A DNA stretch of 64,000 nucleotides, from positions 213,486 through 277,485 of the forward strand of contig OY763926.1 in the NCBI GenBank assembly GCA_963667715.1. Direction: 5' to 3'. Under the pieces are notes generated by a model. The model saw only the letters and a list, made by a program, of their open reading frames with translations. It had not been told where the DNA came from and did no database searches. This document shows, piece after piece, positions 2 through 61,471 of the stretch. Position numbers and translations under genes: made by a program. The DNA is from Sedimentisphaerales bacterium. Lineage in GTDB: Bacteria > Planctomycetota > Phycisphaerae > Sedimentisphaerales > SM23-30. Position 1 is the first letter of the stretch. Each line of letters starts with the position of its first letter.

Positions 2-121
2 AGTGTTTTGCTTGTCGAAACTAATAAAATAATTAGACAATATGAATTGAAAGATAAAGATTTATCAGAACTCAAAAAATCAATCTTACAGAAAGCATTT
101 AGCGGTGAGTTAACTAAGTAG
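2..121 (+). pseudogene. hsdS: hsdS-like 3'-terminal fragment (SVLLVETNKIIRQYELKDKDLSELKKSILQKAFSGELTK*). Further copies end at ~355, ~589, 1577, ~1809 (frameshifted) and ~2042. The first copy could be the genuine end of an hsdS lying upstream of the window
   Basis: The translation ends in the ...LKKSILQKAFSGEL motif typical of the conserved C-terminal helix of type I specificity subunits. The fragment lies immediately upstream of hsdR. Its stop TAG lies inside the REP flank TAAGTAG. Confidence 0.5.
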
Positions 122-227
122 GACAAGCAAGATGCTTGTCAATTAATGAGTCTCGACGAAGTCGACACAATATTTGCCAGCATTTGCTGACAACACAAAA
201 AGTCAAGCAGGATGCTTGACCTACTTA
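115..227 (+). mobile_element. REP doublet (REPIN-like). Other copies at 349-461, 583-695, 1336-1448, ~1571-1683, ~1803-1915 and ~2036-2148
   Basis: TAAGTAG-GACAAGC-aagat-GCTTGTC ... GTCAAGC-aggat-GCTTGAC-CTACTTA. The two arms are reverse complements of each other. Two further hairpins lie in the spacer (TCGACgaaGTCGA and TTGTCAGCAttTGCTGACAA). Confidence 0.7.
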
Positions 228-713
228 TGAGAATTAGTGTTTTGCTTGTCGAAACTAATAAAATAATTAGACAATATGAATTGAAAGATAAAGATTTATC
301 AGAACTCAAAAAATCAATCTTACAGAAAGCATTTAGCGGAGAGTTAACTAAGTAGGACAAGCAGGATGCTTGACAATTAATAAGTTTCGACGAAGTCTGC
401 ACAATGTTTGTCAGCATTTGTTGACAATATAAAAAGTCAAGCAGGATGCTTGACCTACTTATGAGAATTAGTGTTTTGCTTGTCGAAACTAATAAAATAA
501 TTAGACAATATGAATTGAAAGATAAAGATTTATCAGAACTCAAAAAATCCATCTTACAGAAAGCATTTAGCGGAGAGTTAACTAAGTAGGACAAGCAAGA
601 TGCTTGTCAATTAATGAGTCTCGACGAAGTCGACACAATATTTGTCAGCATTTGCTGACAACGTAAAGAGTCAAGCAGGATGCTTGACCTACTTATGAAA
701 CCAAATTAACTAT

Positions 714-1331
714 ATGAATAATATATTTTACAATCCGGAGCTAAAGACAGACAGAAGCAGGCGGCATCTGCCGCACTGGCAGCAGGACGAGAAGCTGTAT
801 TTTGTTACTTTTCGATTAGCTGATTCAATACCGGCAGATGAACTGGCCCGGCTTGTAAAATTGCAGGAAGAATTTGAGCTTAACAATGTCAGGCCGTTCA
901 CTCCTGAGCAGGAGAAGCAATATTGTTATCTTTTCTACGAACAGATTAATAATTGGCTGGATAATTGTTACGGTGAATGTCTGTTGGAAAGAAGTGAAAA
1001 TGCTCAGATAGTAAAAAATGCTTTGGAGTATTTTGATGGTAAAAGATATCGGTTGGACCATTGGGTTATTATGCCCAACCACTTACACGTTATTCTTTTA
1101 TTAAATGAAGGAATAAACATTGGCGATATTACCCATAGCTGGAAATCGTATACTGGATTGCAGATTAACAAGCGAGAGGGCAGGACTGGCCCATTATGGC
1201 AGCATGAGTCATTTGACCATATAATCCGAAGTGACTTTTATCTTAATAAATATCGAGATTATATAATCGCAAACAAAATGAAAGCAAACAAAGCATTATT
1301 AAGTAGGTCAACCATCCTGGTTGACTCATAA
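714..1331 (+). CDS. REP-associated tyrosine transposase (RAYT) / IS200-like Y1 HUH transposase
   Basis: 205-aa ORF with an RRHLPHW N-terminal motif and an HUH motif in WVIMPNHLHVILL. It has a WQHESFDHIIR block and a C-terminal tyrosine motif, RDYIIANKMKA (compare YIxxNP of E. coli RayT). It is flanked by inverted REPs at 670-695 and 1336-1360. Confidence 0.8.
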   Translation: MNNIFYNPELKTDRSRRHLPHWQQDEKLYFVTFRLADSIPADELARLVKLQEEFELNNVRPFTPEQEKQYCYLFYEQINNWLDNCYGECLLERSENAQIVKNALEYFDGKRYRLDHWVIMPNHLHVILLLNEGINIGDITHSWKSYTGLQINKREGRTGPLWQHESFDHIIRSDFYLNKYRDYIIANKMKANKALLSRSTILVDS

Positions 1332-2167
1332 TTTATAAGTAGGACAAGCATCCTGCTTGTTAATCAATAAGTCTCGATGAAGTCGACACAATATTTGTCA
1401 GCATTTGTTGACAATATAAAAAGTCAAGCAAGATGCTTGACCTACTTATTTAGAATTAGTGTTTTGCTTGTCGAAACTAATAAAATAATTAGACAATATG
1501 AATTGAAAGATAAAGATTTATCAGAACTCAAAAAATCAATCTTACAGAAAGCATTTAGCGGTGAGTTAACTAAGTAGGACAAGCAAGATGCTTGTCAATT
1601 AATGAGTCTCGACGAAGTCGACACAATATTTGTCAGCATTTGTTGACAATATAAAAAGTCAAGCAAGATGCTTGACCTACTTATGAGAATTAGTGTTTTG
1701 CTTGTCGAAACTAATAAATAATTAGACAATATGAATTGAAAGTTAAATATTTATCCGAACTCAAAAAATCCATCTTACAGAAGCATTTAGCGGAGAATTA
1801 ACTAAGTAGGACAAGCAGGATGCTTGTCAATTAATAAGTTTCGACGAAGTCTGCACAATATTTGTCAGCATTTGTTGACAATATAAAAAGTCAAGCAAGA
1901 TGCTTGACCTACTTATGAGAATTAGTGTTTTGCTTGTCGAAACTAATAAATAATTAGACAATATGAATTGAAAGTTAAATATTTATCCGAACCAAAGAAT
2001 ACAATTTTACAGAAAGCATTTAGCGGTGAATTAACTAAGTAGGACAAGCATCCTGCTTGTCAATTAATAAGTCTCGACGAAGTCGGCACAATGTTTATCA
2101 GTATTTGTTGACAATATAAAAAGTCAAGCAGGATGCTTGACCTACTTATTTAGAATTAGGAAATGAT

Positions 2168-4546
2168 ATGAATGAGGCACAGACAAGGCATGATCTAATA
2201 GACCCGGCGTTGAAGGCTGCTGGTTGGGGAGTAGTTGAAGGCAGCCGTATTCGGGTGGAATATCCGATTACACAGGGGAGGCTGATCGGCCATGGCAGGC
2301 GAGCCAAGCCGTTGAGTGCTGACTATGTGTTGCAATATCGTAACCGTAACCTTGCAGTGGTTGAGGCTAAGAGCGACGAGGAAGGGTATAATGAGGGAGT
2401 TGGGCAGGCTAAGGATTATGCTGACCGTCTGAATATTCGCTTTACATATTCAACTAATGGTCTGGCGATTTACGGTATAGATATGGAGGAAGGTTTAGAA
2501 GGGATAGTTGCGAAATTTCCTGGTCCGGATGAATTATGGCAGATGACCTGGCCTGAGCCGGAGAGTGTGCTGGATATAGATAAGGCGAAGTGGCGTGAAA
2601 AGCTTTTTGCTGTGCCGTTTGAAGATAGGAGCGGTACCTGGCAGCCGAGATATTATCAGGAGAACGCTATTACCAAGGCCCTGGAAGCTGTTGCAGATGA
2701 TAAAAGACGTATTTTGCTGACATTGGCAACTGGTACCGGTAAGACAGCTATCGCCTTTCAGATAGCATGGAAGCTGTTTCACGCTAAATGGAACCTGAAA
2801 CGGGACGGGCAGCGAAGTCCCCGGATACTATTTCTGGCAGATAGGAATATATTGGCTGATCAGGCGTTTAACGCATTTAATGCCTTTGAAGAAGATGCAC
2901 TGGTAAGGATTGCACCGGATGAGATCAGGAAAAAGGGGAAAGTACCTAAAAACGGCAGCATATTCTTTACAATTTTCCAGACGTTTATGAGCGGGCCGGA
3001 AGATACGCCATATTTTGGTGAGTATCCAAAAGATTTCTTCGATTTAATTATTATAGATGAGTGTCATCGTGGTGGTGCTAATGATGAAAGTTCGTGGCGC
3101 GGAATTATGGATTATTTCAGTCCGGCGGTACAGCTTGGCCTGACGGCGACCCCTAAACGAGATGTTAATATTGACACTTATAAGTATTTCGGTGATCCGG
3201 TATATATCTATTCTCTGAAAAACGGTATTAACGATGGTTTTCTTACACCGTTTAAGGTCAAAGAGGTCGCTACCACTGGGGATGAGTATATCTATACCTC
3301 TGACGATACGATTATTGAAGGTGATATTGAAGAGGGCCGTACTTATACGATAGAAGAGCAGAATCGGATAATTGAGCTGATGGATGTTGAGCGTTTCAGA
3401 GTTCAGCAGTTTATGAAGATCATTAATCAGAGCCAGAAAACCCTGGTATTTTGTGCAACACAGCGTCATGCAGCGGCTGTGCGTGATCTTATCAATCAGA
3501 TTTCGACAAGCAGCAGTCCAAACTACTGTCATCGGGTAACCGCAGATGATGGTTCAATCGGTGAACAGCATTTAAGGGATTTTCAGGATAATGAAAAGAG
3601 TATACCAACGGTTCTGACAACTTCTCAGAAGCTTAGTACCGGTGTGGATGCCCCTGAGATACGTAATATCGTATTGCTGCGGCCAATTAACTCTATGGTA
3701 GAGTTTAAGCAGATCGTTGGCCGGGGGACGAGGCTGTTTGACGGTAAGGACTATTTTACCATCTTTGATTTCGTAAGAGCTCATGAGCATTTTAAAGATC
3801 CAGCCTGGGATGGTGAGCCGATCGATCCGGAACCGGCTGGGCCGGCAGAACCGAAACTGTGTAAGGTTTGTGGTCAGTGTCCGTGTATATGTCCAAAGCC
3901 GGAACCGGAGCTATGTCCGGATTGCGGGCAGTGGCCTTGTGTATGTGATAAGCCGTCAAAGAAAATGGTGCGTGTGAAGCTCTCTGACAGTAAGGTTCGT
4001 GAACTTGACTGTATGATAAAAACCAGCTTTTGGGACCCTACCGGTAAGCCAATATCAGCGGAAGAATTTATAAGAAAGCTGTTTGGTGATATACCAGCTA
4101 TGTTTGGTAATGAAGATGAGCTTAGAAAGATTTGGAGTCTGCCGGATACCAGAAGAAAACTGCTGGATGAGCTTAGCGAAAAAGGATATACCAGCGAACA
4201 GTTGTCAGATTTGAGTAAACTGGTCCATGGCGAGGATTGTGACCTGTATGATGTGCTGGCTTATGTGGCCTACCATAGAGATTTGGTGCCGAGACTGGAA
4301 CGAGCTGAGCGGGCTAAAATACATTTGGATTCTTATGATGTAAAACAACAGGAGTTTCTAAACTTCGTTTTGGAACAATATGTAAAAGTTGGTGTTGAAG
4401 AGCTTGATGAGGCTAAGTTGCCAGCACTGTTAGAACTTAAATATCGTGCTATTGCAGATGCAAAAACTGAATTGGGAGATATTAAAACGATACGAGAAAC
4501 GTTTATTGGATTTCAGGAGTATTTGTATTGGGTGAATGCGATGTAG
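2168..4546 (+). CDS. hsdR: Type I restriction enzyme R subunit (EcoEI/PRK11448-like)
   Basis: 792 aa. The N-terminal nuclease-type region reads EAQTRHDLIDPALKAAGW...DYVL...VVEAKS. SF2 helicase motifs are present: YYQENAI, ATGTGKT, DECHR, TATP. The C-terminus is EcoEI_R_C-like. A Cys-rich insert lies at about aa 565-595. Confidence 0.9.
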   Translation: MNEAQTRHDLIDPALKAAGWGVVEGSRIRVEYPITQGRLIGHGRRAKPLSADYVLQYRNRNLAVVEAKSDEEGYNEGVGQAKDYADRLNIRFTYSTNGLAIYGIDMEEGLEGIVAKFPGPDELWQMTWPEPESVLDIDKAKWREKLFAVPFEDRSGTWQPRYYQENAITKALEAVADDKRRILLTLATGTGKTAIAFQIAWKLFHAKWNLKRDGQRSPRILFLADRNILADQAFNAFNAFEEDALVRIAPDEIRKKGKVPKNGSIFFTIFQTFMSGPEDTPYFGEYPKDFFDLIIIDECHRGGANDESSWRGIMDYFSPAVQLGLTATPKRDVNIDTYKYFGDPVYIYSLKNGINDGFLTPFKVKEVATTGDEYIYTSDDTIIEGDIEEGRTYTIEEQNRIIELMDVERFRVQQFMKIINQSQKTLVFCATQRHAAAVRDLINQISTSSSPNYCHRVTADDGSIGEQHLRDFQDNEKSIPTVLTTSQKLSTGVDAPEIRNIVLLRPINSMVEFKQIVGRGTRLFDGKDYFTIFDFVRAHEHFKDPAWDGEPIDPEPAGPAEPKLCKVCGQCPCICPKPEPELCPDCGQWPCVCDKPSKKMVRVKLSDSKVRELDCMIKTSFWDPTGKPISAEEFIRKLFGDIPAMFGNEDELRKIWSLPDTRRKLLDELSEKGYTSEQLSDLSKLVHGEDCDLYDVLAYVAYHRDLVPRLERAERAKIHLDSYDVKQQEFLNFVLEQYVKVGVEELDEAKLPALLELKYRAIADAKTELGDIKTIRETFIGFQEYLYWVNAM

Positions 4547-5129
4547 GTTTGATGATGTTTTTTTATAGACGGGATAACTGCCCGGGTACGGGCTGGATTT
4601 TGGAGCCAGCTCCGATTTGTCGGAGACAGATTATGTTTGGTTTAAATATGTTTGGTAATGTTATACCTTCCTGGGCTTCGGGGGAGGAGAAGATTTTTTA
4701 TCCACAGATTTATTGTAATGGGTTCGCTGGGGCGAACAGGTGGTTGATTAATTGGCACAGATTTAAGAAGAATAATTTAGAAGAGGATTTCACGCAAAGA
4801 CGCGAGGTGCTTCGCACCCGCAAAGGAAGAAGAAGATTGCTAGGATGCGAGGATTATCAGGATAAGAAGAAGAGGAAGAGTTATTTCTCGCAGAGCTCGC
4901 GGAGGCGCAGAGGGAAGGAAATTTAATAATAAGAGTTTTAACGCGATGGTACTGAGAGTTGGTTGGCAGGTGTGGGTGTTAGTGAGTTTATGATTTGGTT
5001 GGAAAGTAAGGAAGAAGACTTAAGAATCCCGACGTGTATCGGGAAACTCTTGCGCGGGGAGATGGTTGGGCGAGGCTTATTAATCAAACTGAAGTTTGTA
5101 CTCTTAAAGCTTCGCGTTTTCTTTTTCCT
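4547..5129 (+). repeat. Mosaic intergenic cluster C1 (modules M1, a, f, g, h, j)
   Basis: Module a (CCACAGATT..GGTTCGC-n-GCGAAC..TTGATTAATT..CACAGATTTAAGAAG) is at 4701-4770. Module j (GGAAAGTAAGGAAGAAGACTTAAGAATCCCGACGTGTATCGGGAAACTCTTGCGCG) is at 5001-5056. Confidence 0.85.
4556..4699 (+). repeat. M1 element copy A (long form); candidate structured RNA/ssDNA element
   Basis: GGGATAAC, then hairpin GCCCGggtaCGGGC, then CTGGATTTT. Overlapping hairpins follow (GGAGCcaGCTCC and CTCCGAtttgTCGGAG), then CAGATT. The terminal hairpin is CCTTCC..GGGAGG followed by T6. Confidence 0.6.
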
Positions 5130-6632
5130 TTATGGGATAGTTATTATGTTTGTGGTGGAAGGGGTTGGGGTTGGCAGGTTGGATTTGCAATGTGGGCATT
5201 GGTTTTTGTTTAGCCATCTGCTTTTGCCGCAGTTGTGGCATATTGTTAGTGGGTAGTGGTTGAAGATGAGGTATGTTGCCAGTCCGGCGATATTGAATGA
5301 GTAGATCAGTATTGCCCAGCCGGCGGTTTTGATGATAGATCTTTGTCGGTTGCGAGTGTGGGCCAGCATAATAAAAACGCATATGACAGAGGCGGCGCGG
5401 AGGTACCATAGTGTCCAGAACGGTAGAACGGTGCCGGGTAAGTTGTGAGAGTTTATGGGGAGAATGAGATAGCCGGGTATGGTAGCGAAAAAGTAAGGTT
5501 GTATGTTGGCAGGTGATCTGCGGGTCCATAGTTTGTTATATTGGTGTATTAGCTGGGCAGAGCGTAAGTCGCCGGAGAGCTTATATAGTCGGTGCGGGTT
5601 TTTGCTGACAATATTGGTAGTGCGGCCGAGCTCTTTATTGGTTATGTATTTTATGATTAGTTCGTCGGATTCCTGTGGGGTGATGCCGCACTTGAATCTT
5701 GGGTCTTCGATGGTATTGATGTAGATGTTTTTGCGGTTTATGTCAGTGTATAGATTGTATGCCTGCTGGCTGTAGTCGATGTTGTCGAGGGCGATGTGGG
5801 TTATGATGGGCTGGGTGTTGGTGAGTTTAACAAAAGCCGGAGATATGTCATTGTAAACAACAAATAATCTGTCGGGAACGTGTATTGACTCTTTTTTGAC
5901 ATTGTCAGCGGTGAAGATCTGCCAGTCGATGATCTTGCTGGTTAGGCTGGCGGGAGTGAGCTGTATACGCTCTCTGGTGCTGAAGTCTGTCTGGTATATG
6001 CTTTTTCCGTCGCAGCTGAGCATGAGCATATGTCTTTTGTTGTTCTGGTCTTTTATCGCCCAGAAATATTTTTCGTTCATACTGAATCTGCCGGCGTCGG
6101 CTGAGTTGGCGGCGAAGCCGTTTATGCCGTAGTGGCCTACAATTTGTTTGTCCAGATATCCGGTAAGGGTCTGGTCATTATCGTTATAGCACCAGATGAC
6201 GATACCGTTTTCGGTTTCAGTTGGTATGAGTTTTTCGTCCAGGGTGTTGCCATTGTATTGGTAGCCGCCCGCCATGATTCTGTACTTGCGCTCTGGTGCG
6301 GAGTATTGGAGTATGTCGGCGTCGGTTAGGTGGTCTACAGGTGATAAGGTGTCCTGCTGTGGGTCGTATATTTCGTAGGTGTTTTTGTTGTCTAGCATTT
6401 CTGAGATAAGCAGCTGGCCGGTGGTTGTATAGCCGATTTGTGAGCAGGAAACCTTCCACTGGTTCTCAGTGATATCTATTAGTGGCGATAGTGCCTTATG
6501 TGATGGTGGGCTATAGCGATAGCCAGTGTAGTTTGCAATAATGATTATGCAAATACAAATGATGATGTATATAGCTATTGAGAATATAAGGTTTCGACAT
6601 ATAACGCTGTAGTATTTTAATATGTTAAACAT
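5130..6632 (-). CDS. Hypothetical membrane protein: N-terminal TM anchor, large extracytoplasmic domain, C-terminal TM bundle and CxxC..CxxC zinc ribbon
   Basis: Long ORF. I moved the start from the track's TTG (6653) to ATG 6632 (MFNILKYY...). The C-terminus reads ICHNCGKSRWLNKNQCPHCKS. It is the last gene of the gntR/ABC cassette. Confidence 0.6.
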   Translation of the reverse strand: MFNILKYYSVICRNLIFSIAIYIIICICIIIIANYTGYRYSPPSHKALSPLIDITENQWKVSCSQIGYTTTGQLLISEMLDNKNTYEIYDPQQDTLSPVDHLTDADILQYSAPERKYRIMAGGYQYNGNTLDEKLIPTETENGIVIWCYNDNDQTLTGYLDKQIVGHYGINGFAANSADAGRFSMNEKYFWAIKDQNNKRHMLMLSCDGKSIYQTDFSTRERIQLTPASLTSKIIDWQIFTADNVKKESIHVPDRLFVVYNDISPAFVKLTNTQPIITHIALDNIDYSQQAYNLYTDINRKNIYINTIEDPRFKCGITPQESDELIIKYITNKELGRTTNIVSKNPHRLYKLSGDLRSAQLIHQYNKLWTRRSPANIQPYFFATIPGYLILPINSHNLPGTVLPFWTLWYLRAASVICVFIMLAHTRNRQRSIIKTAGWAILIYSFNIAGLATYLIFNHYPLTICHNCGKSRWLNKNQCPHCKSNLPTPTPSTTNIITIP

Positions 6633-7624: not shown

Positions 7625-7654
7625 GAATCACAAGCAAGATGCTTGTGCTACTTA
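7625..7654 (-). repeat. Class-1 REP S1
   Basis: GAATCACAAGCaagatGCTTGTGCTACTTA; on the minus strand this reads TAAGTAG-CACAAGC...GCTTGTG. It lies 1 nt from the stop of the ABC ATPase gene. Confidence 0.75.
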
Positions 7655-9587: not shown

Positions 9588-9620
9588 AAGAATCACAAGC
9601 GAGGACGCTTGTGCTACTTA
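9588..9620 (-). repeat. Class-1 REP S2
   Basis: AGAATCACAAGCgaggacGCTTGTGCTACTTA. The TAA stop of the 9618-10388 gene is the TAA of TAAGTAG. Confidence 0.75.
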
Positions 9621-10388: not shown

Positions 10389-11316
10389 AATTTTGGTCCG
10401 TAAAAGGTTAAAGGTAAAAAGTTAAAGGTTTTATGTTTACCTGTATTATGTATCGTGTGATATTTGGCGGGACTTATGGCGGTTGGTGGGAGATGGTTGA
10501 TTATGGGGCGGCTGGTTGTGGGTTGGAGTGAGTAGGGTTATGGGTAAGTGGTTTGTTGATGGGAGGTTATTGGGATTGATAAGGTGAGAGCGGTGTATGG
10601 TGGGGCGGGTGGGTTATCGGACGGATTAGGGTGGGAATAAATGATTGATATGGGTGGGTGAATGTGGATAATATGTATGATTGTAAAAGGTAAGAGTAGT
10701 TGTCCACAGATTTGTTGAAAGGGGTTTGCTGCCGCAAACGCTGATTGATTAATTTACGCGGATTTAAGAAGAGGAGTAATTAAGAAATATATTTACCATG
10801 AAGTTCATGGAGATCTTAGTGACGGTCGAGCCGCAACCAAAAGTTTTATGTAAGAAGAGAATTAAGAGTTTAACGCAAAGTCGCCAGGTCGCAAAGAGTT
10901 GGTTGGCGATTGGGGGGGGGGAGATGATGGCAGTATGAAGAGTTTTTTGGGGAACCACAGATGAACACGGATGAACACCGATAAGGGGAAGTTGGGGAGA
11001 TACAAGATACATAGCAGCCGTAAAGGGGGGAAGAAGGAAATGGCTAGGATGCGAGGGTTTTTAGGATAAGAAGATTAAGAGAAGAGTTGGTTCTCGCAGA
11101 GGCGTGAAGATTTGGTTGGAGATGTGGGCGTTGGGGAGTTTGTGGTTTTGTTGGAAAGTAAGGAAGAAGACTTAAGAATCCCGATGTGTAACGGGAAACT
11201 CTTGCGCGAAGGGTTGGTTGGGAAGCTGCTTAGGAGACGCAAGATTTTGCGTCTCTACGTGGGGGGATGGTTTTTTTTTGGAAGTAGATAAACGAGAATG
11301 AATAGAAGAAACGAAG
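10389..11316 (+). repeat. Mosaic intergenic cluster C3 (AAAGGTA repeats, G/T-rich tract, a, b, c, g, h-variant, j, class-2 REP)
   Basis: Module a is at 10703-10772 with a compensated stem, GTTTGC..GCAAAC. GGTTGG/GGGTGG-rich DNA spans ~10440-10700. Confidence 0.8.
11233..11258 (-). repeat. Class-2 REP R2-1
   Basis: GGAGACGCAAgattTTGCGTCTCTAC; the minus strand reads GTAG-AGACGCAA..TTGCGTCT. Confidence 0.7.
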
Positions 11317-23276: not shown

Positions 23277-23306
23277 AAACTTATTGACCGATGGTGAATA
23301 AGTTTA

Positions 23307-23351
23307 GAAGTTAGGAATTAGAAATTAGAAATTAGAAATTAGAAATTAGAA
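23307..23351 (+). repeat. Octamer microsatellite (GAAATTAG)n, about 5-6 units
   Basis: GAAGTTAGGAATTAGAAATTAGAAATTAGAAATTAGAAATTAG. Confidence 0.85.
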
Positions 23352-23384
23352 AACCCCGAAATATGATTATTTCGGGGTTTTTTG
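23352..23384 (+). terminator. Rho-independent terminator of ilvBN
   Basis: AACCCCGAAAT-atgatt-ATTTCGGGGTT followed by a T-run. Confidence 0.85.
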
Positions 23385-23413: not shown

Positions 23414-23446
23414 AGAATCACAAGCAAGGATGCTTGTGCTACCTTA
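23414..23446 (-). repeat. Class-1 REP S6
   Basis: AGAATCACAAGCaaggatGCTTGTGCTACCTTA. The stop codon of the 23444-24031 gene lies in the flank. Confidence 0.7.
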
Positions 23447-34319: not shown

Positions 34320-34691
34320 TATTATTTATCCGTAGATTATTTTTGAGGTGTTTGCTGGGGCGAACGGCTTATTGATTAATTTGCACAGATTTAAGAATGA
34401 AATTATAGATATGAATGACCCTGGTGTGTTTTTGCATCAGGGTTATTTTTTTTTGGGGAAAATAGAATTAAGAGGAAGATTTAACGCAAGGTCGCTAAGA
34501 CGCAAAGATTTGGTTGGCGGTATTGGGGATTTGTGAGTTTGTGACTTTGGTTGGGGAGTAAGGAAGAAGACTAAAGAATCCCGATGTGCATCGGGAAATG
34601 GCCGGAACTCTTGCGTGAAGAGATGGATGGCGGGATGGGGGATTAGGGAGTTTGCTGGGATTAGTAGAGACGCAAAATCTTGCGTCTCTAC
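34320..34691 (+). repeat. Mosaic intergenic cluster C9 (a, c-variant, j, class-2 REP)
   Basis: Module a is at 34329-34397 with stem GTTTGC..GCGAAC (wobble). Module j contains TCCCGATGTGCATCGGGA. Confidence 0.8.
34664..34691. repeat. Class-2 REP R2-6 (GTAG on both strands)
   Basis: GTAGAGACGCAAaatcTTGCGTCTCTAC. The TAG stop of the 34688-37417 gene is the TAG of the minus-strand GTAG. Confidence 0.75.
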
Positions 34692-37417
34692 TTGTAGGTT
34701 GGTTTTTGGGGTTGGGATGGCCAGTAGAGACGGTCTTGCCATGTGGCGTTGTTGTTGGTCATGTCGTCGCCGTAGCTGTATAGTATGAAGTCGTTGTCTG
34801 TAGTTTTGTATATAAGTGTGGTGTCGCTGTAGGGGTCTGTTGGTATCTGGTCGATATAGCCGGAGGTTTGTAGAGTTTGCAGGGAGTCGGGTAGTTTGTT
34901 ATTTGCCAGCTGGTATTTTTTGATCGCGATAATAGTTGCTGTTGCCTGTATTTCTGAGATGCCGTTGTAGGTGATATCTCGCATGCGGGAATAATAGCCG
35001 CATTGATTACGCATTATATCGTTACTTAGAATTATCTTATTGATCTCAATTCTGGCGTTAGTGTCGGTGTATTCATATTCAAATGGTGTTAGTTGTTTGC
35101 TCTGGTCCAGGAGTTTCATTATTTGTTCATTAGCGTTTATAATCTGCTTCTCTGACGGGCCAAACATTGAGATATGTGCCATAGCGAATTTGTTACGAAT
35201 TTCAGGTCTTCTGTCTTTGGTTTCGGTGGTGAGCAGACCATGCCAGGCGAGGTGGCCGCTGCCGTTTTTTGAAGGAGAGAAGCTTCTCTGTAGAGTGTCA
35301 TAAAAGTACAGGTTACTACCTGCATATGAAATTGTCATTGGTGTATCGGCCATGCTATTTATTATGCTTGTGAGTGTTTCCAGATTGGCGCTGTTGGGGT
35401 TAGAGTTTTTTAATAGCATTCTGGATAGTACAGCTGCTTTAGATCGGTAGCTGATGGTGACGATTTGTTCGATAAGCAGGCTGTTTTCTGACCAAAGCTG
35501 GTTGGCCATTTTGTTTATGCTATCTATGTGTTGGATCGCTTGAGTGGTATTGCCGTCGGCGATGTTTACGATGGTGCTGCAATAGAGCAGGTAAAAGATA
35601 TTTCTCATATTGCTCAGGTCGGGGAGCTGTACAAAGAATGCTCCATTATCGGCTTTTCGTTCGATATAATAATAGGGTAGCTCGACGGCGGATTCTATAG
35701 TAGTCAGAGCCTGGCTATTGGCTTTTGTCCACAGGCGATATTGTTCTATAACTTCGCTGTCGGGGAAGATGTCTTTGTTGTAGTTTCTGAATGTGTCCGG
35801 GATAGGTGATATTATATTTTCTAACTGTTGGTATATTGGGAATGAGTTGTTTGCCTGTGTGAAGTTTTCTGGTATGCGGTTTTGGTTATATATTTTAACA
35901 TAATCTATATCTGCTACGGGTGTGACGGTTGCGTAGTAGGTGAGCTTGAGGGCGAAGAATAATAATACAGCTGCGCAGCCGAGAAGGATGCGGTTGCATA
36001 TCTTGTATGACTCTGTGCAGATTACTTTGAGAGCAATTATAAAGAGCAGCCATTGGGCGGCGGCGATATATGGAAATGGTTTGAAAATATTCTTGTAGCT
36101 TGAAAGTGAGAGGGTGTCGTTACGGAATATTTCGGGTAGTTTGTATGTGTCGTGTATTATTACAATTGCCACGAGAGAGAACACGACTATCAGCAGGTTG
36201 GTCAGTAGTGAAAGTAAATGATGCTTGCGCGTGAGCAGTTTTGTGAAAAGAGCAATTGGGATAACTGCGGTCATCATTATCCAGCCGAGTATGACATCGT
36301 TATATTTTAGATATATATTTCTGAAGATGTGTATCTTGTCCGGTAGGGTGTCAATTAGTATGTAGTTTAGGCCGGCTATTATAGTGCCAACGATAAGGGT
36401 TAGGATAGCTGATAAGGTGGCGATGATAAGTGCGGCCCGGAAGCGTTCTTTGCGTCCGCCGGCGGTGAGGTGTGTTGAGTCGATGTTGAGGTTGACCCTG
36501 GCGGCGGTCATGGCGATTATTATCATGATCACATGTTTTGCGCCGGGCAGATAGCCGATGGTGGCGCCGACTATTAGCAGGGTGAGTAGTCCCTTTATAC
36601 TCAATAGTTTTGACAGTGGCATAGCAAGTGAGCTGTATATACCGCCGATGATGAATTGTCTGGATGAGTTGTTTTTTGTGTTGCTGAGTTTTCTGGTGAA
36701 GTAACCTTCAATGAACCAGCTGATATTGTCGCGAGAGTCTTTGCCTTTTAATTGCCGGCGTAGAAGTTTTTCGCGACGAATTTTATCGGGGTTAGCGGTT
36801 AGTCCGTCGATGGCTTTACCGCAATATTTACGAGCTATACTGTCGCGGCTGAGCAGCTGCCAGGCGGTGAGGTTGATAATTATTCCGATGATAATCAGAG
36901 TGTAGGGATATATTACTATTGCCAGGTATGAGAGCGGGCCATTATTGTAGTCTATGATGGGCAGCCCGGCAACGATCAATATTGTTAGAACCGGTATGTT
37001 TATGAGTATCAGGCTGAGTACGGTTAGCCAGTATAGAGTTGTTAGCAGAGCAAACGCGGCGGTGCAGGAGATGAGAGTTTGGGATAGAATCATTTGTGGC
37101 TGGATATTGATATAGCATATAGACCATAGTGCACTTAGAGTGAGACCGCAGGCAAAGAGGAAGTTTCTGGGTACAGAGCGATGGCCGGGCATGCAATATG
37201 ACATGGGCTTATTGATGACTTCAGCGGCCATAGAGCTGATATACATACCGGTGAACATGATCCAGATCAGGGGCATGCCTAATGTCTTACTGACAGGTGC
37301 CTGTAGGGTGAAGGTTACCGCAACAATTACATAAGCGGTGAGGGAGAGCATGAAGATCGCGAGCCAGTTTATTCGCCGCTGATATATGTGTTTTAGGTTT
37401 GCTGTTAGTATGTTCAT
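34688..37417 (-). CDS. Large polytopic membrane protein with extracytoplasmic C-terminal domain ending in a GspG/pseudopilin-like segment
   Basis: 909 aa. The N-terminus MNILTANLKHIYQRRINW is paralogous to that of the neighbouring 455-aa protein, and there are more than 10 TM segments. The C-terminus reads KLPDSLQTLQTSGYIDQIPTDPYSDTTLIYKTTDNDFILYSYGDD. Confidence 0.6.
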   Translation of the reverse strand: MNILTANLKHIYQRRINWLAIFMLSLTAYVIVAVTFTLQAPVSKTLGMPLIWIMFTGMYISSMAAEVINKPMSYCMPGHRSVPRNFLFACGLTLSALWSICYINIQPQMILSQTLISCTAAFALLTTLYWLTVLSLILINIPVLTILIVAGLPIIDYNNGPLSYLAIVIYPYTLIIIGIIINLTAWQLLSRDSIARKYCGKAIDGLTANPDKIRREKLLRRQLKGKDSRDNISWFIEGYFTRKLSNTKNNSSRQFIIGGIYSSLAMPLSKLLSIKGLLTLLIVGATIGYLPGAKHVIMIIIAMTAARVNLNIDSTHLTAGGRKERFRAALIIATLSAILTLIVGTIIAGLNYILIDTLPDKIHIFRNIYLKYNDVILGWIMMTAVIPIALFTKLLTRKHHLLSLLTNLLIVVFSLVAIVIIHDTYKLPEIFRNDTLSLSSYKNIFKPFPYIAAAQWLLFIIALKVICTESYKICNRILLGCAAVLLFFALKLTYYATVTPVADIDYVKIYNQNRIPENFTQANNSFPIYQQLENIISPIPDTFRNYNKDIFPDSEVIEQYRLWTKANSQALTTIESAVELPYYYIERKADNGAFFVQLPDLSNMRNIFYLLYCSTIVNIADGNTTQAIQHIDSINKMANQLWSENSLLIEQIVTISYRSKAAVLSRMLLKNSNPNSANLETLTSIINSMADTPMTISYAGSNLYFYDTLQRSFSPSKNGSGHLAWHGLLTTETKDRRPEIRNKFAMAHISMFGPSEKQIINANEQIMKLLDQSKQLTPFEYEYTDTNARIEINKIILSNDIMRNQCGYYSRMRDITYNGISEIQATATIIAIKKYQLANNKLPDSLQTLQTSGYIDQIPTDPYSDTTLIYKTTDNDFILYSYGDDMTNNNATWQDRLYWPSQPQKPTYK

Positions 37418-44257: not shown

Positions 44258-44319
44258 AGTAAGTAATAAGTAACAAGTAACAAGTAACAAGTAACAAGTA
44301 ACAAGTAACAAGTAACAAG
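44258..44319 (+). repeat. Heptamer microsatellite (GTAACAA)n, about 6 perfect plus 2 degenerate units
   Basis: GTAAGTAATAAGTAACAAGTAACAAGTAACAAGTAACAAGTAACAAGTAACAAG. Confidence 0.85.
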
Positions 44320-44355
44320 TTCAGGTTCCGCCCTTTGGGCGAGGCTGATTAATTA

Positions 44356-57648: not shown

Positions 57649-57721
57649 TTGTTTATAACCATATTAATGGTCAGAGTTATTATAATTTTGATTGGTTGTG
57701 TGGTCAAAGGAATAATGATTA

Positions 57722-57820
57722 AGTGCAAAGGTGAAGAAGTGCAAAGGTGAAGAAGTGCAAAGTGCGAAGTGCGAAGTGCAAAGTGCGAAGAGGGAAGAGG
57801 GAAGAGAGGAGGGGGGGAAG
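57722..57820 (+). repeat. Purine-rich microsatellite block (GTGCAAA/GTGCGAA heptamers, GGTGAAGAAGTGCAAA, GAGGGAA)
   Basis: AGTGCAAAGGTGAAGAAGTGCAAAGGTGAAGAAGTGCAAAGTGCGAAGTGCGAAGTGCAAAGTGCGAAGAGGGAAGAGGGAAGAG. Confidence 0.85.
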
Positions 57821-60233: not shown

Positions 60234-61471
60234 TGAGCGAAGAAAACAGACAAGCGGCGATGAAGGTAATTGAGATTCTGCACGAAGCGGGGTTCCAGGG
60301 TTTATGGGCCGGAGGTTGCGTGCGTGATATGCTGATGGGGGTAGAGCCTCAGGATTATGATATAGCGACGGATGCGTACCCGGAGCAGGTAGGGAAGCTG
60401 TTTCGCAGGACGCTAATGGTGGGTGCCCAGTTTGGTGTGGTTGTGGTACTTATCGGTAATGTACAGATCGAGGTTGCGACATTTCGCAGTGAGGGTGGGT
60501 ATGCAGATGGGCGGCGGCCGGATAGTATAGAGTTTACCGATGCAAAGGAAGATGCGCTGCGTCGAGACTTTACTATTAACGGGATGTTCTATGATCCGAT
60601 AGCAGATGAGGTGCTGGACTATGTAGGTGGTAGGCATGATCTGGAGGGGCGGGTAATCCGGGCGATCGGAGATGCTGAGGCTCGGTTTGGTGAGGATCAT
60701 TTGCGGATGCTGAGAGCGGTGCGTTTTGCTGCACGGCTGGGTTATGTGATCGAGAGTAAGACATGGCAGGCGATATGTAAGCATCGGATGCGGATAAGTA
60801 TGATAAGTGCTGAACGGGTGGCGATGGAGCTGGAGAAGATCCTGGTGCATGAGAGTCGTCATACGGGTATGCGGCTGCTGGCTGATTGCGGGCTGATGAA
60901 GTATATATTTCCGTGGTGCTCGCCGGAGTGTCATGAGGAGGGTATCGAGCTGCTGAAGTATATCAGGGGTGAGGTTGATCTTGGACTTGGGCTGGCGATG
61001 ATATTGATAGCGGAGGAAGTTGAGGATGTTGGTCAGATATGTCGGGAGCTGAAACTGAGTAATGATGTGAGGAAGAAGGGGCACTGGCTGGCGGCGGGTA
61101 TGGCGAAGCTGGCGGGAGATATGCCGTTGAGTAAGGGTCGGCTCAAGCGATGGCTGGCGAATGAGTGGTTTGGCGACTTGAGGCGACTGATGCGGGCGAG
61201 GAATGAGCAGCTGGGCGAGTCGAATGAGGCGATGGATAGGCTGGCGGAACAGATAGAGGAGCTGGGCGATGAGGAGATAACGCCGGTACCGATCTTGAAT
61301 GGTAATGATCTGATGGCTTTGGGTATTAAGCCGGGGCCGGGGCTGGGAGCGATGTTTGATAAGGTATATCTGGCACAGCTGGAAGGGGAGATTGTTGATA
61401 AGGGGCAGGCGGAGGAAATGGTTAGGAAGTGCAAAGTGCAAAGTGCAAAGTGCGAAGATGGGGAAGTGTAG
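60233..61471 (+). CDS. cca: CCA-adding enzyme / poly(A) polymerase-family tRNA nucleotidyltransferase
   Basis: GGCVRDMLMG..PQDYDIAT, RSEGGYADGRRP and RRDFTINGM. TGATG overlap with the rsmD stop. The last ~14 codons are encoded by a GTGCAAA repeat. Confidence 0.88.
   Translation: MSEENRQAAMKVIEILHEAGFQGLWAGGCVRDMLMGVEPQDYDIATDAYPEQVGKLFRRTLMVGAQFGVVVVLIGNVQIEVATFRSEGGYADGRRPDSIEFTDAKEDALRRDFTINGMFYDPIADEVLDYVGGRHDLEGRVIRAIGDAEARFGEDHLRMLRAVRFAARLGYVIESKTWQAICKHRMRISMISAERVAMELEKILVHESRHTGMRLLADCGLMKYIFPWCSPECHEEGIELLKYIRGEVDLGLGLAMILIAEEVEDVGQICRELKLSNDVRKKGHWLAAGMAKLAGDMPLSKGRLKRWLANEWFGDLRRLMRARNEQLGESNEAMDRLAEQIEELGDEEITPVPILNGNDLMALGIKPGPGLGAMFDKVYLAQLEGEIVDKGQAEEMVRKCKVQSAKCEDGEV
61429..61457 (+). 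repeat. (GTGCAAA)x3 + GTGCGAA heptamer repeat inside the cca 3' end
   Basis: GTGCAAAGTGCAAAGTGCAAAGTGCGAAG encodes the tail ..KCKVQSAKCED. Confidence 0.85.

Follow-up and report, generated by a model that had tools for sequence, protein, structure and literature searches.

A Putative RAYT Gene within a Tandem Array of REP Doublets: A Probable REPtron from a Planctomycete

Organization of the Locus

The DNA analyzed here is a stretch of 64,000 nucleotides from contig OY763926.1 (hereafter the window), and its host is probably a Sedimentisphaerales planctomycete. The window opens with a tandem array of repetitive extragenic palindromes (REPs), hairpins headed by the tetranucleotide GTAG, which occupies positions 1-2159. 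The array is interrupted once, by a 205-amino-acid open reading frame (ORF) at 714-1331 whose product appears to be a REP-associated tyrosine transposase (RAYT), and it stops 8 bp ahead of the start of hsdR, the gene for the R subunit of a type I restriction system (Table 1). Tandem Repeats Finder (TRF) reports a 234-bp unit repeated 3.0 times at 1-698 and a 232-bp unit repeated 3.5 times at 1336-2159, and the array comprises at least 6.5 units of 234 bp. Position 1 already lies inside the array, so its upstream end and the intact hsdS gene are out of view. A RAYT gene with locally amplified copies of REPs, or of bacterial interspersed mosaic elements (BIMEs), on both sides is the arrangement known as a REPtron, and this is the arrangement found here.

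Each 234-bp unit consists of a 113-bp REP doublet and about 121 bp that contain the last 39 codons of hsdS, the gene for the S subunit. The start-to-start distances of successive doublets are 234, 234, 753, 235, 232 and 233 bp. From this spacing, the RAYT ORF fills one of the slots between doublets. The slot that bears it is 640 bp long, and the remaining slots each hold an hsdS tail of roughly 121 bp. Three doublets lie upstream of the gene and four downstream.

Table 1. Coordinates of the RAYT gene, the REP hairpins and doublets, the hsdS tails and hsdR in the window
Feature	Position	Strand	Remarks
Putative RAYT (TnpAREP-type Y1 HUH tyrosine transposase) gene	714..1331	+	205 aa, intact; HUH = H123-L-H125; predicted catalytic Tyr = Y183
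REP directly 5' of RAYT gene	670..695	-	TAAGTAG-GTCAAGC-atcct-GCTTGAC; 0 mismatches; head toward gene; right arm of doublet 3
REP within last RAYT codons	1300..1325	+	TAAGTAG-GTCAACC-atcct-GGTTGAC; 2 mismatches
REP directly 3' of RAYT gene	1336..1361	+	1 mismatch; head toward gene; left arm of doublet 4
REP doublet 1	115..227		REPIN/BIME-like: GTAG-hairpin, two small inner hairpins, hairpin-CTAC
REP doublet 2	349..461
REP doublet 3	583..695		Immediately 5' of RAYT gene
REP doublet 4	1336..1448		Immediately 3' of RAYT gene
REP doublet 5	1571..1683
REP doublet 6	1803..1915
REP doublet 7	2036..2148		Final doublet; followed by TTTAGAATTAG (2149-2159), then hsdR start
hsdS 3' tail copy 1	4..121	+	Ends in ...SVLLVETNKIIRQYELKDKDLSELKKSILQKAFSGELTK, then stop; similarity to type I S subunit C-termini
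hsdS 3' tail copy 2	238..355	+
hsdS 3' tail copy 3	472..589	+
hsdS 3' tail copy 4	1460..1577	+
hsdS 3' tail copy 5	1694..1809	+	Decayed: single-base deletions causing frameshift
hsdS 3' tail copy 6	1926..2042	+	Decayed; mutations in common with copy 5
hsdR	2168..4546	+	Type I restriction R subunit; Pfam ResIII, EcoEI_R_C, HSDR_N; downstream limit of array

The stop codon of each hsdS tail, TAG, is formed by the final three bases of the REP head GTAG. The tail peptide resembles only the C-termini of proteins named 'type I restriction enzyme S subunit', one of which has the domain PF01420. A Pfam search with the 41-aa peptide gave no match, a tblastn search against plasmids was also empty, and the protein database held short S-subunit-like proteins only and no full-length HsdS with this C-terminus. 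Since these searches gave no full-length match, the tails are assigned to hsdS by weak similarity together with their place beside hsdR.

The RAYT Protein

The RAYT ORF holds the segments ...VIMPNHLHVILLL... and ...YRDYIIANKMK.... A preliminary description of this DNA, made from its letters alone, had noted an HUH motif (PNHLHVIL) and a C-terminal tyrosine motif in the 205-aa product and had likened it to E. coli RayT, and both observations hold. The NCBIfam model REP_Tyr_transpos (NF047646) matches with 74.8 bits (E 6e-21; curated cut-off 80), and the Pfam family Y1_Tnp (PF01797) with 22.8 bits (E 1e-4; curated cut-off 23). The profile match spans residues 90-192 only, owing to an N-terminal insertion. 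A phmmer search against the PDB gave a single meaningful match, 4er8, which is E. coli TnpAREP bound to a REP. In this alignment, PNHLHVIL corresponds to PEHMHCIW and RDYIIANK to VDYIYINP, and the block WQ..F..H.IR...DYI..N, on which the likeness to RayT had been based, is aligned as well.

Conservation and predicted fold point in the same direction. In an alignment of 32 homologues, H123, H125, Y183, W162, E165 and the N-terminal LPHW (residues 19-22) are invariant. An AlphaFold model built from the same 32-sequence alignment has a mean confidence score (pLDDT) of 90.4, and Foldseek places this model closest to 4er8_A in the PDB (E 8e-7), followed by the TnpA proteins of ISDra2, IS608 and IS200. 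Sequence and modeled structure therefore support the assignment of the product as a RAYT. The gene is present in one copy in the window. The identical protein is recorded once in the protein database, and its only other relative on the same 4,585,758-bp contig is P0012, a protein of 53% identity. The nearest relatives, at 57-65% identity, come from metagenome-assembled genomes (MAGs) of Sedimentisphaerales and Phycisphaerae.

REP Hairpins and Doublets

The window was scanned for the pattern TAAGTAG-GWCAAGC-N5-GCTTGWC with mismatches counted, and the chance level was estimated from shuffled sequence. The pattern is matched 16 times vs 0.01 expected. Fifteen REPs cognate to the RAYT gene are present, and every one of them lies within the local array. 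The preliminary description had placed one REP on the 5' side of the gene, one on the 3' side and one in the last codons of the ORF; the scan recovered all three, with none, one and two mismatches, respectively. The two mismatches of the REP at 1300-1325 are a compensatory change in the stem, from AAGC/GCTT to AACC/GGTT. REPs of this 'AACC' type form the left-arm REP beside several homologues, and C-terminal tails encoded by a REP are also found in the homologues P0009 and P0014.

Each doublet has a left arm, TAAGTAG-GACAAGC-loop-GCTTGTC, and a right arm, GTCAAGC-loop-GCTTGAC-CTACTTA, with two small hairpins between them (TCGACgaaGTCGA and TTGYCAGCAtttGCTGACAA). A single REP is predicted to fold into an 8-bp stem with a 3-nt loop at -7.4 to -7.8 kcal/mol (z about -4 to -5). 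The doublet can be folded into four hairpins or into one long hairpin with both heads paired, as in REP doublets forming hairpins (REPINs), and the heads are paired in the minimum-free-energy folds of 112-230 (z -4.0) and 1333-1451 (z -6.6). With their inverted arms, short spacer and predicted long-hairpin fold, the seven 113-bp doublets have the form of REPINs or BIMEs. In five of the seven (118-140, 352-374, 586-608, 1574-1596 and 1806-1828), the loop of the left arm is inverted with respect to the GTAG head, reading AAGAT or AGGAT rather than ATCTT or ATCCT. The left arms at 1339-1361 and 2039-2061 belong to the remaining two doublets, and the right arms are canonical throughout. The loop inversion suggests a flip-flop or an arm-to-arm conversion inside the doublets. 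A search of Rfam gave no family for the hairpins, only miRNA-precursor look-alikes below threshold.

Hairpins on both sides of a Y1 transposase gene raise the question of whether the gene is an ordinary autonomous insertion sequence (IS) of the IS200/IS605 type, with the hairpins as its ends, that was inserted into an array already in place. The putative RAYT is predicted to share the Y1 HUH fold and chemistry of the IS608 and ISDra2 TnpAs, including the recognition of single-stranded hairpins, a short sequence 5' of the hairpin foot appears to be essential in both systems, and the hairpins are subterminal. However, the IS200 equivalog model NF033573 scores the protein at 14.7 bits vs a cut-off of 55, far below its score with the RAYT model. 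The flanking hairpins are inverted with their heads pointing inward, whereas the ends of IS200/IS605 elements are direct. Many of these hairpins are present where there is no such gene, and the 64 kb of the window contain one copy of the gene and no tnpB. The protein has a single database record, its only other relative on the contig is the 53%-identical P0012, and the gene does not appear to move as a unit. In addition, the homologues P0005 and P0006 have asd-argJ neighbours in common, as expected of vertically inherited RAYTs. We therefore rejected an IS200/IS605 identity, which we regard as very improbable.

RAYT Genes and Arrays at Homologous Loci

Two sets of loci were used for comparison. 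The wide set comprised 88 loci encoding relatives of 28-65% identity, in which the zone within 400 bp of the gene was treated as near. The close set comprised eight loci with close homologues, or nine when the window is counted. GTAG-headed hairpins with 7-bp stems adjoin the gene in all eight close-homologue loci. Their stems vary by genome (GACAGGC, CTCAAGC, CTTAGCC, GACAACC and others) and the GTAG is constant. The inverted GTAG-hairpin flanks described for the window are a real and recurring feature, in which stems co-vary around a fixed head. Across the 88 loci, the density of GTAG-hairpins is 2.96/kb in the near zone vs 0.16/kb farther out, an 18-fold difference. At least one such hairpin is near the gene in 60 loci, both sides are occupied in 43, and 31 loci have at least four. 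With control tetranucleotide heads the density is 0.05-0.28/kb, and with GTGG, known as an alternative REP head, it is 0.97/kb.

The order doublet-RAYT-doublet is found in L024 (63% identity) and L046 (65%). The upstream doublet at both loci begins where the gene before it has its stop codon, and homology between the L046 doublet and that of the window extends to the inner hairpins. The preliminary description had placed the RAYT gene in a slot that an hsdS fragment occupies in the other units. The spacing of the doublets bears this out, and the arrangement is better read as a conserved doublet-RAYT-doublet module around which the array was amplified.

Tandem REP arrays beside the gene are present in four of the nine close-homologue loci, the window included. 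In L049 (57%), the RAYT gene lies within about 20 tandem units of roughly 116 bp with one REP apiece; L048 (61%) has six 85-bp units upstream of the gene, and L051 has three 127-bp units. In 12 of the 88 loci, TRF detects a tandem repeat with a period of 40 bp or longer no more than 300 bp from the gene. When all REP sites across all of the DNA fetched were taken together, 16 of 108 sites next to a RAYT gene were tandemly amplified vs 1 of 93 elsewhere (Fisher p = 5e-4). The window has 14 GTAG-hairpins outside the array, and none of these shows amplification. The preliminary description had suggested that the enzyme and the array are mechanistically linked; the link is supported as a statistical association rather than as a mechanism. 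Two further observations concern these loci. In L049 (2083-2120 and 2966-3006), a 37-bp segment otherwise specific to the region upstream of the RAYT gene recurs 883 bp farther upstream in the array and looks like the scar of a higher-order duplication that once took in the edge of the RAYT gene. In L051, the RAYT homologue P0010 is followed, about 800 bp downstream, by a reverse-transcriptase gene (RVT_1, 4430-5770).

The homologous loci also bear on a possible role of the array in the restriction-modification (R-M) locus. According to this explanation, the array would be a store of hsdS segments for switching, or its REPs would insulate or attenuate hsdR, and the RAYT gene would be incidental. 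The array does lie exactly between the end of hsdS and the start of hsdR, the REP heads provide the stop codon of each hsdS tail, and the right-arm REPs receive terminator-like scores on the minus strand. E. coli REPs near stop codons or between the genes of an operon affect mRNA stability and translation. However, equivalent arrays occur at homologous RAYT loci that have no R-M genes nearby. Every tail repeats, in direct orientation, one set of 39 conserved C-terminal codons and includes no target-recognition domain (TRD); therefore, no diversity of specificity is possible. Two copies are frameshifted, and there are neither inverted hsdS copies nor a site-specific recombinase. A service to the R-M locus is thus highly unlikely. 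A phase-variable hsdS shufflon was likewise rejected, as the six tails are direct repeats of one set of codons, give no Methylase_S or TRD match and include the two frameshifted copies. The hsdS tails are co-amplified passengers and not a library of specificities.

Origin of the Array

In the units, the doublet is followed by T(TT/GA)AGAATTAG, and at 2149-2159 this sequence also lies between doublet 7 and hsdR. Since this flank is common to the units and to the region upstream of hsdR, the repeat junction can be placed at GAATTA|GTGTTTT, which lies 10-11 nt past CTACTTA and not at the hairpin foot. On the bottom strand the junction reads CAC|TAATTC, a C|T, and the REPs of the window also contain GACC|TACT, that is, CC|TAC at the complementary foot. 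E. coli TnpAREP cleaves at C|T, strictly dependent on GTAG, both at CC|TAC and at linker sites that reach out to more than 400 nt from the REP (PMC3333891). The junction fits this chemistry, although the support that one dinucleotide gives is thin. The unit and doublet borders of L024, L046, L048 and L049, inspected by eye, are inconsistent or ambiguous with respect to a C|T rule, and for this reason the junction in the window is taken as weak evidence.

We consider it fairly likely that the locus is a REPtron, in which a single intact RAYT gene lies among locally amplified cognate REPs, and that the array arose by a cut-and-join or template-switch event followed by unequal exchange. The ancestral order would have been hsdS-doublet-RAYT-doublet-hsdR. 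By analogy with E. coli TnpAREP (PMC3333891, PMC3479197), the enzyme would use the GTAG and the hairpin to bind a REP folded in single-stranded DNA, cut at C|T (CC|TAC in the complement of the head, as well as nearby linker C|T sites), retain the cut end through a 5'-phosphotyrosine link and rejoin that end to another 3'-OH. One illegitimate join, whether catalyzed by the RAYT or made by a template switch, would have fused a point 10-11 nt past the downstream doublet into hsdS. The DNA duplicated by this join would have begun within hsdS and ended slightly beyond the doublet that follows the RAYT gene, and the product would be the 234-bp repeat of hsdS tail, REP doublet and short downstream flank. 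Unequal homologous exchange between doublets or units could then have lengthened the array to the left and right of the gene, with loss of additional RAYT copies and reassortment of sequence variants.

The units themselves record such exchange. U1, U3 and U5 share one set of left-half variants and U2 and U6 another, the right halves re-assort, and the two tails proximal to hsdR have their frameshifts in common. From this mosaic structure, homologous unequal exchange or gene conversion has certainly acted. An alternative is that the enzyme was uninvolved altogether. Slippage or template switching at hairpin-rich DNA, followed by RecA-dependent unequal crossing-over between direct repeats of 113-234 bp, would have built the array, and the RAYT gene would merely lie where doublets already existed. 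The mosaic units are what this explanation predicts, and it also accommodates the position of the junction, which is 10-11 nt away from the REP and not at its CC|TAC foot. Each hsdS tail starts TGTTTT-GCTTGTC, and the 7-mer GCTTGTC (10-16 in the window, likewise in each unit) equals the 3' half of the REP stem and lies 6 nt inside the junction on the hsdS side. The match could promote a template switch; it may be a microhomology that aided the first duplication, or chance (roughly 5%). The L049 border that is not a C|T and the higher-order duplications of L049 (periods 233, 347 and 463), which are typical of recombination, favor the same explanation. However, hairpins alone fail to explain why amplification is concentrated beside RAYT genes, the ten or so dispersed REP sites of the window show none, and the junction does fall on a C|T. 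Moreover, TnpAREP builds tandem BIMEs in vitro (PMC3333891). An origin through host recombination alone is conceivable, and we judge it rather doubtful.

At the opposite end, the array could be an in vivo footprint of RAYT-catalyzed amplification. A GTAG-directed distal cut on the bottom strand at CC|TAATTC, 13 nt 5' of the REP head, would have been joined to a C|T in hsdS, 117 bp of coding sequence would have been copied along with the doublet, and the enzyme would then have acted preferentially in cis. The intact hsdS at the breakpoint would in this case read ...A|GTGTTTTGC, again a bottom-strand C|T. A preference for cis action would explain why arrays gather around RAYT genes in this clade. 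We offer this stronger proposal tentatively, as possible but on balance improbable. If it is true, the window locus together with L048, L049 and L051 constitutes a tractable natural system for the way in which RAYTs multiply REPs. A reading of 'TGAGAATTAG' as a chimera of the flanks upstream of the RAYT gene and of hsdR was dropped, since it implies a breakpoint other than a C|T and the sequence can be explained by a simple mutation.

Several points weigh against the REPtron reading as we favor it. The two RAYT-related profile scores are significant and fall just below their curated cut-offs, owing to about 50 residues of helical insertion that separate strand 1 from the HUH strand and have no counterpart in E. 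coli TnpAREP. That enzyme needs a mismatch in the stem (PMC3333891), whereas the stems here are perfect. A lone C|T at one junction is expected by chance roughly 1 time in 8, and the junction that ends the L049 array does not fall on a C|T. Beyond the array, the remaining 62 kb contain no REP of the G[AT]CAAGC type; the stems of the four dispersed relatives read CACAAGC, and these REPs may be those of the paralogue P0012. Because two direct REP doublets accompany every RAYT gene and in themselves favor unequal exchange, the association between adjacency and amplification is confounded. Finally, host recombination, certain from the mosaic units, could have done everything.

Relation to Known REPtrons

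The locus belongs to a kind that has already been published, namely, REPtrons and tandem REPIN clusters that include flanking sequence and adjoin a RAYT gene (PMC3333891, PMC3116915), and it is a clear but ordinary example. The numbers of BIMEs at REPtrons vary, strand transfer by TnpAREP can assemble tandem BIMEs, and dispersal followed by local amplification has been proposed (Ton-Hoang et al. 2012, PMC3333891). The structure of E. coli TnpAREP (RayT/YafM) with a REP is known (PDB 4ER8; Messing et al. 2012, PMC3479197). It is a Y1 HUH enzyme with one catalytic tyrosine, as the window protein is predicted to be, and is the top PDB match of that protein by both sequence and fold. In both systems, GTAG stands 5' to the hairpin foot with CC|TAC at the complementary foot, and doublets are locally amplified in tandem. 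The two enzymes differ in that they are only about 18% identical over the core, and the window RAYT has the helical insertion after strand 1 and the N-terminal LPHW. The REPs of E. coli are imperfect palindromes, whereas the perfect stems in the window are 7-8 bp long with loops of 3-5 nt. The amplified unit in the window also carries 117 bp of a neighbouring gene, and the host is a different one.

The second precedent is Pseudomonas fluorescens SBW25, in which ordered REPIN clusters are tandem repeats with flanking sequences, one beside each of three RAYTs (Bertels and Rainey 2011, PMC3116915). There, as in the window, two inverted REPs about 110 bp apart are able to form one long hairpin, a REPIN with its flank is tandemly repeated beside a RAYT gene, and each RAYT paralogue appears to have its own REP family. 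In contrast, the largest cluster described in SBW25 has four REPINs, and the window has seven doublets, which lie to either side of the gene. The flank co-amplified in the window is recognizable as an hsdS coding tail, and the dispersed REPs in the window are singlets rather than doublets. A super-family of GTAG-tagged REPs, divided into 24 families, has been described together with REPtrons across phyla, Planctomycetes and Verrucomicrobia included, and coding sequence is overlapped by some of its members (Di Nocera et al. 2013, PMC3733652). The window likewise has GTAG-headed palindromes, some of them overlapping coding sequence; their stem family is [GC]NCAAGC-N5-GCTTGN[GC], often with the loop ATCYT or TTCCA.

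Studies of REPtrons come almost wholly from Escherichia and Pseudomonas, and the present locus is a clean and well-resolved one from Planctomycetota. Its unit boundaries are exactly readable because the amplified unit includes recognizable hsdS coding sequence. Such exact borders are rare in pure REP arrays and permit a direct test of the C|T cut-and-join model, and a small set of related loci (L048, L049 and L051) behaves likewise.

Other REP Families and Minor Observations

Outside the array, the remaining 62 kb of the window contain REPs that are singlets or single hairpins tagged on both sides. Single REPs of the form GTAG-CACAAGC-loop-GCTTGTG are dispersed at 7651(-), 9617(-), 23442(-) and 47779(-). 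They probably belong to P0012 and not to the RAYT studied here, because C[AT]CAAGC REPs are found at the locus of P0009, the closest relative of P0012. A second GTAG-REP family, with the stem GTAG-AGACGCA-aaatct-TGCGTCT, is present at 11258(-), 13500(-), 17436(-), 20744(-), 26589(+)/26616(-) and 34664(+)/34691(-); at the last two sites, single hairpins are tagged GTAG...CTAC at both ends. No RAYT cognate to this family lies within the window. The AGACGCA stem recurs in L026, a locus from a Sedimentisphaerales MAG. All eight singly tagged dispersed REPs, four CACAAGC and four AGACGCA, are on the minus strand, and the placement could reflect a replication-strand or gene-orientation bias. The GC skew is uniformly and strongly positive over the whole window (1-64000), with (G-C)/(G+C) of 0.04-0.46 in each 2-kb bin.

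Very often, REP heads appear to adjoin the stop codon of the gene upstream, or to include it, in the sense orientation (TAA-GTAG, or the TAG of GTAG). Examples are 119-121 (an hsdS tail), 9617-9620, 23439-23446 and 34688-34691 in the window, as well as L024 (5527), L046 (2838), L032 and L036. A 909-aa ORF at 34688-37417(-) terminates in the TAG of a GTAG head. These abutting heads recall the E. coli REPs that lie within a few nucleotides of stop codons.

A scan of genome DNA for the core TAAGTAG-[GC]NCAAGC-N5-GCTTGN[GC] found 45 loci vs roughly 17 expected from base counting alone. The hosts are MAGs of Phycisphaerae, Verrucomicrobiota, Kiritimatiellae, Victivallales, Acidobacteriota and Chloroflexota, and ATCYT, TTCCA and GTCTC are frequent loops. 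This distribution suggests that the [GC]NCAAGC core is a very widespread or convergent REP type.

The repeats also matter for annotation. ORFs of 47-151 aa are found across the array at 139-594(-), 212-355(+), 446-589(+) and 1377-1577(+), and one of them has a protein-database entry, the 42-aa P0122. These ORFs arise from the repeat and are not independent genes, which accounts for both the string of small 'S-subunit-like' ORFs and the 151-aa antisense ORF at 139-594. The hsdS tails should not be taken for a phase-variation system. Elsewhere in the window, heptamer tandem repeats occur at 23304-23352, 44261-44320, 57721-57797 and 61427-61457; they comprise TTAGAAA repeated 7 times, AAGTAAC repeated 8.6 times and AAGTGCA-based arrays at two sites.

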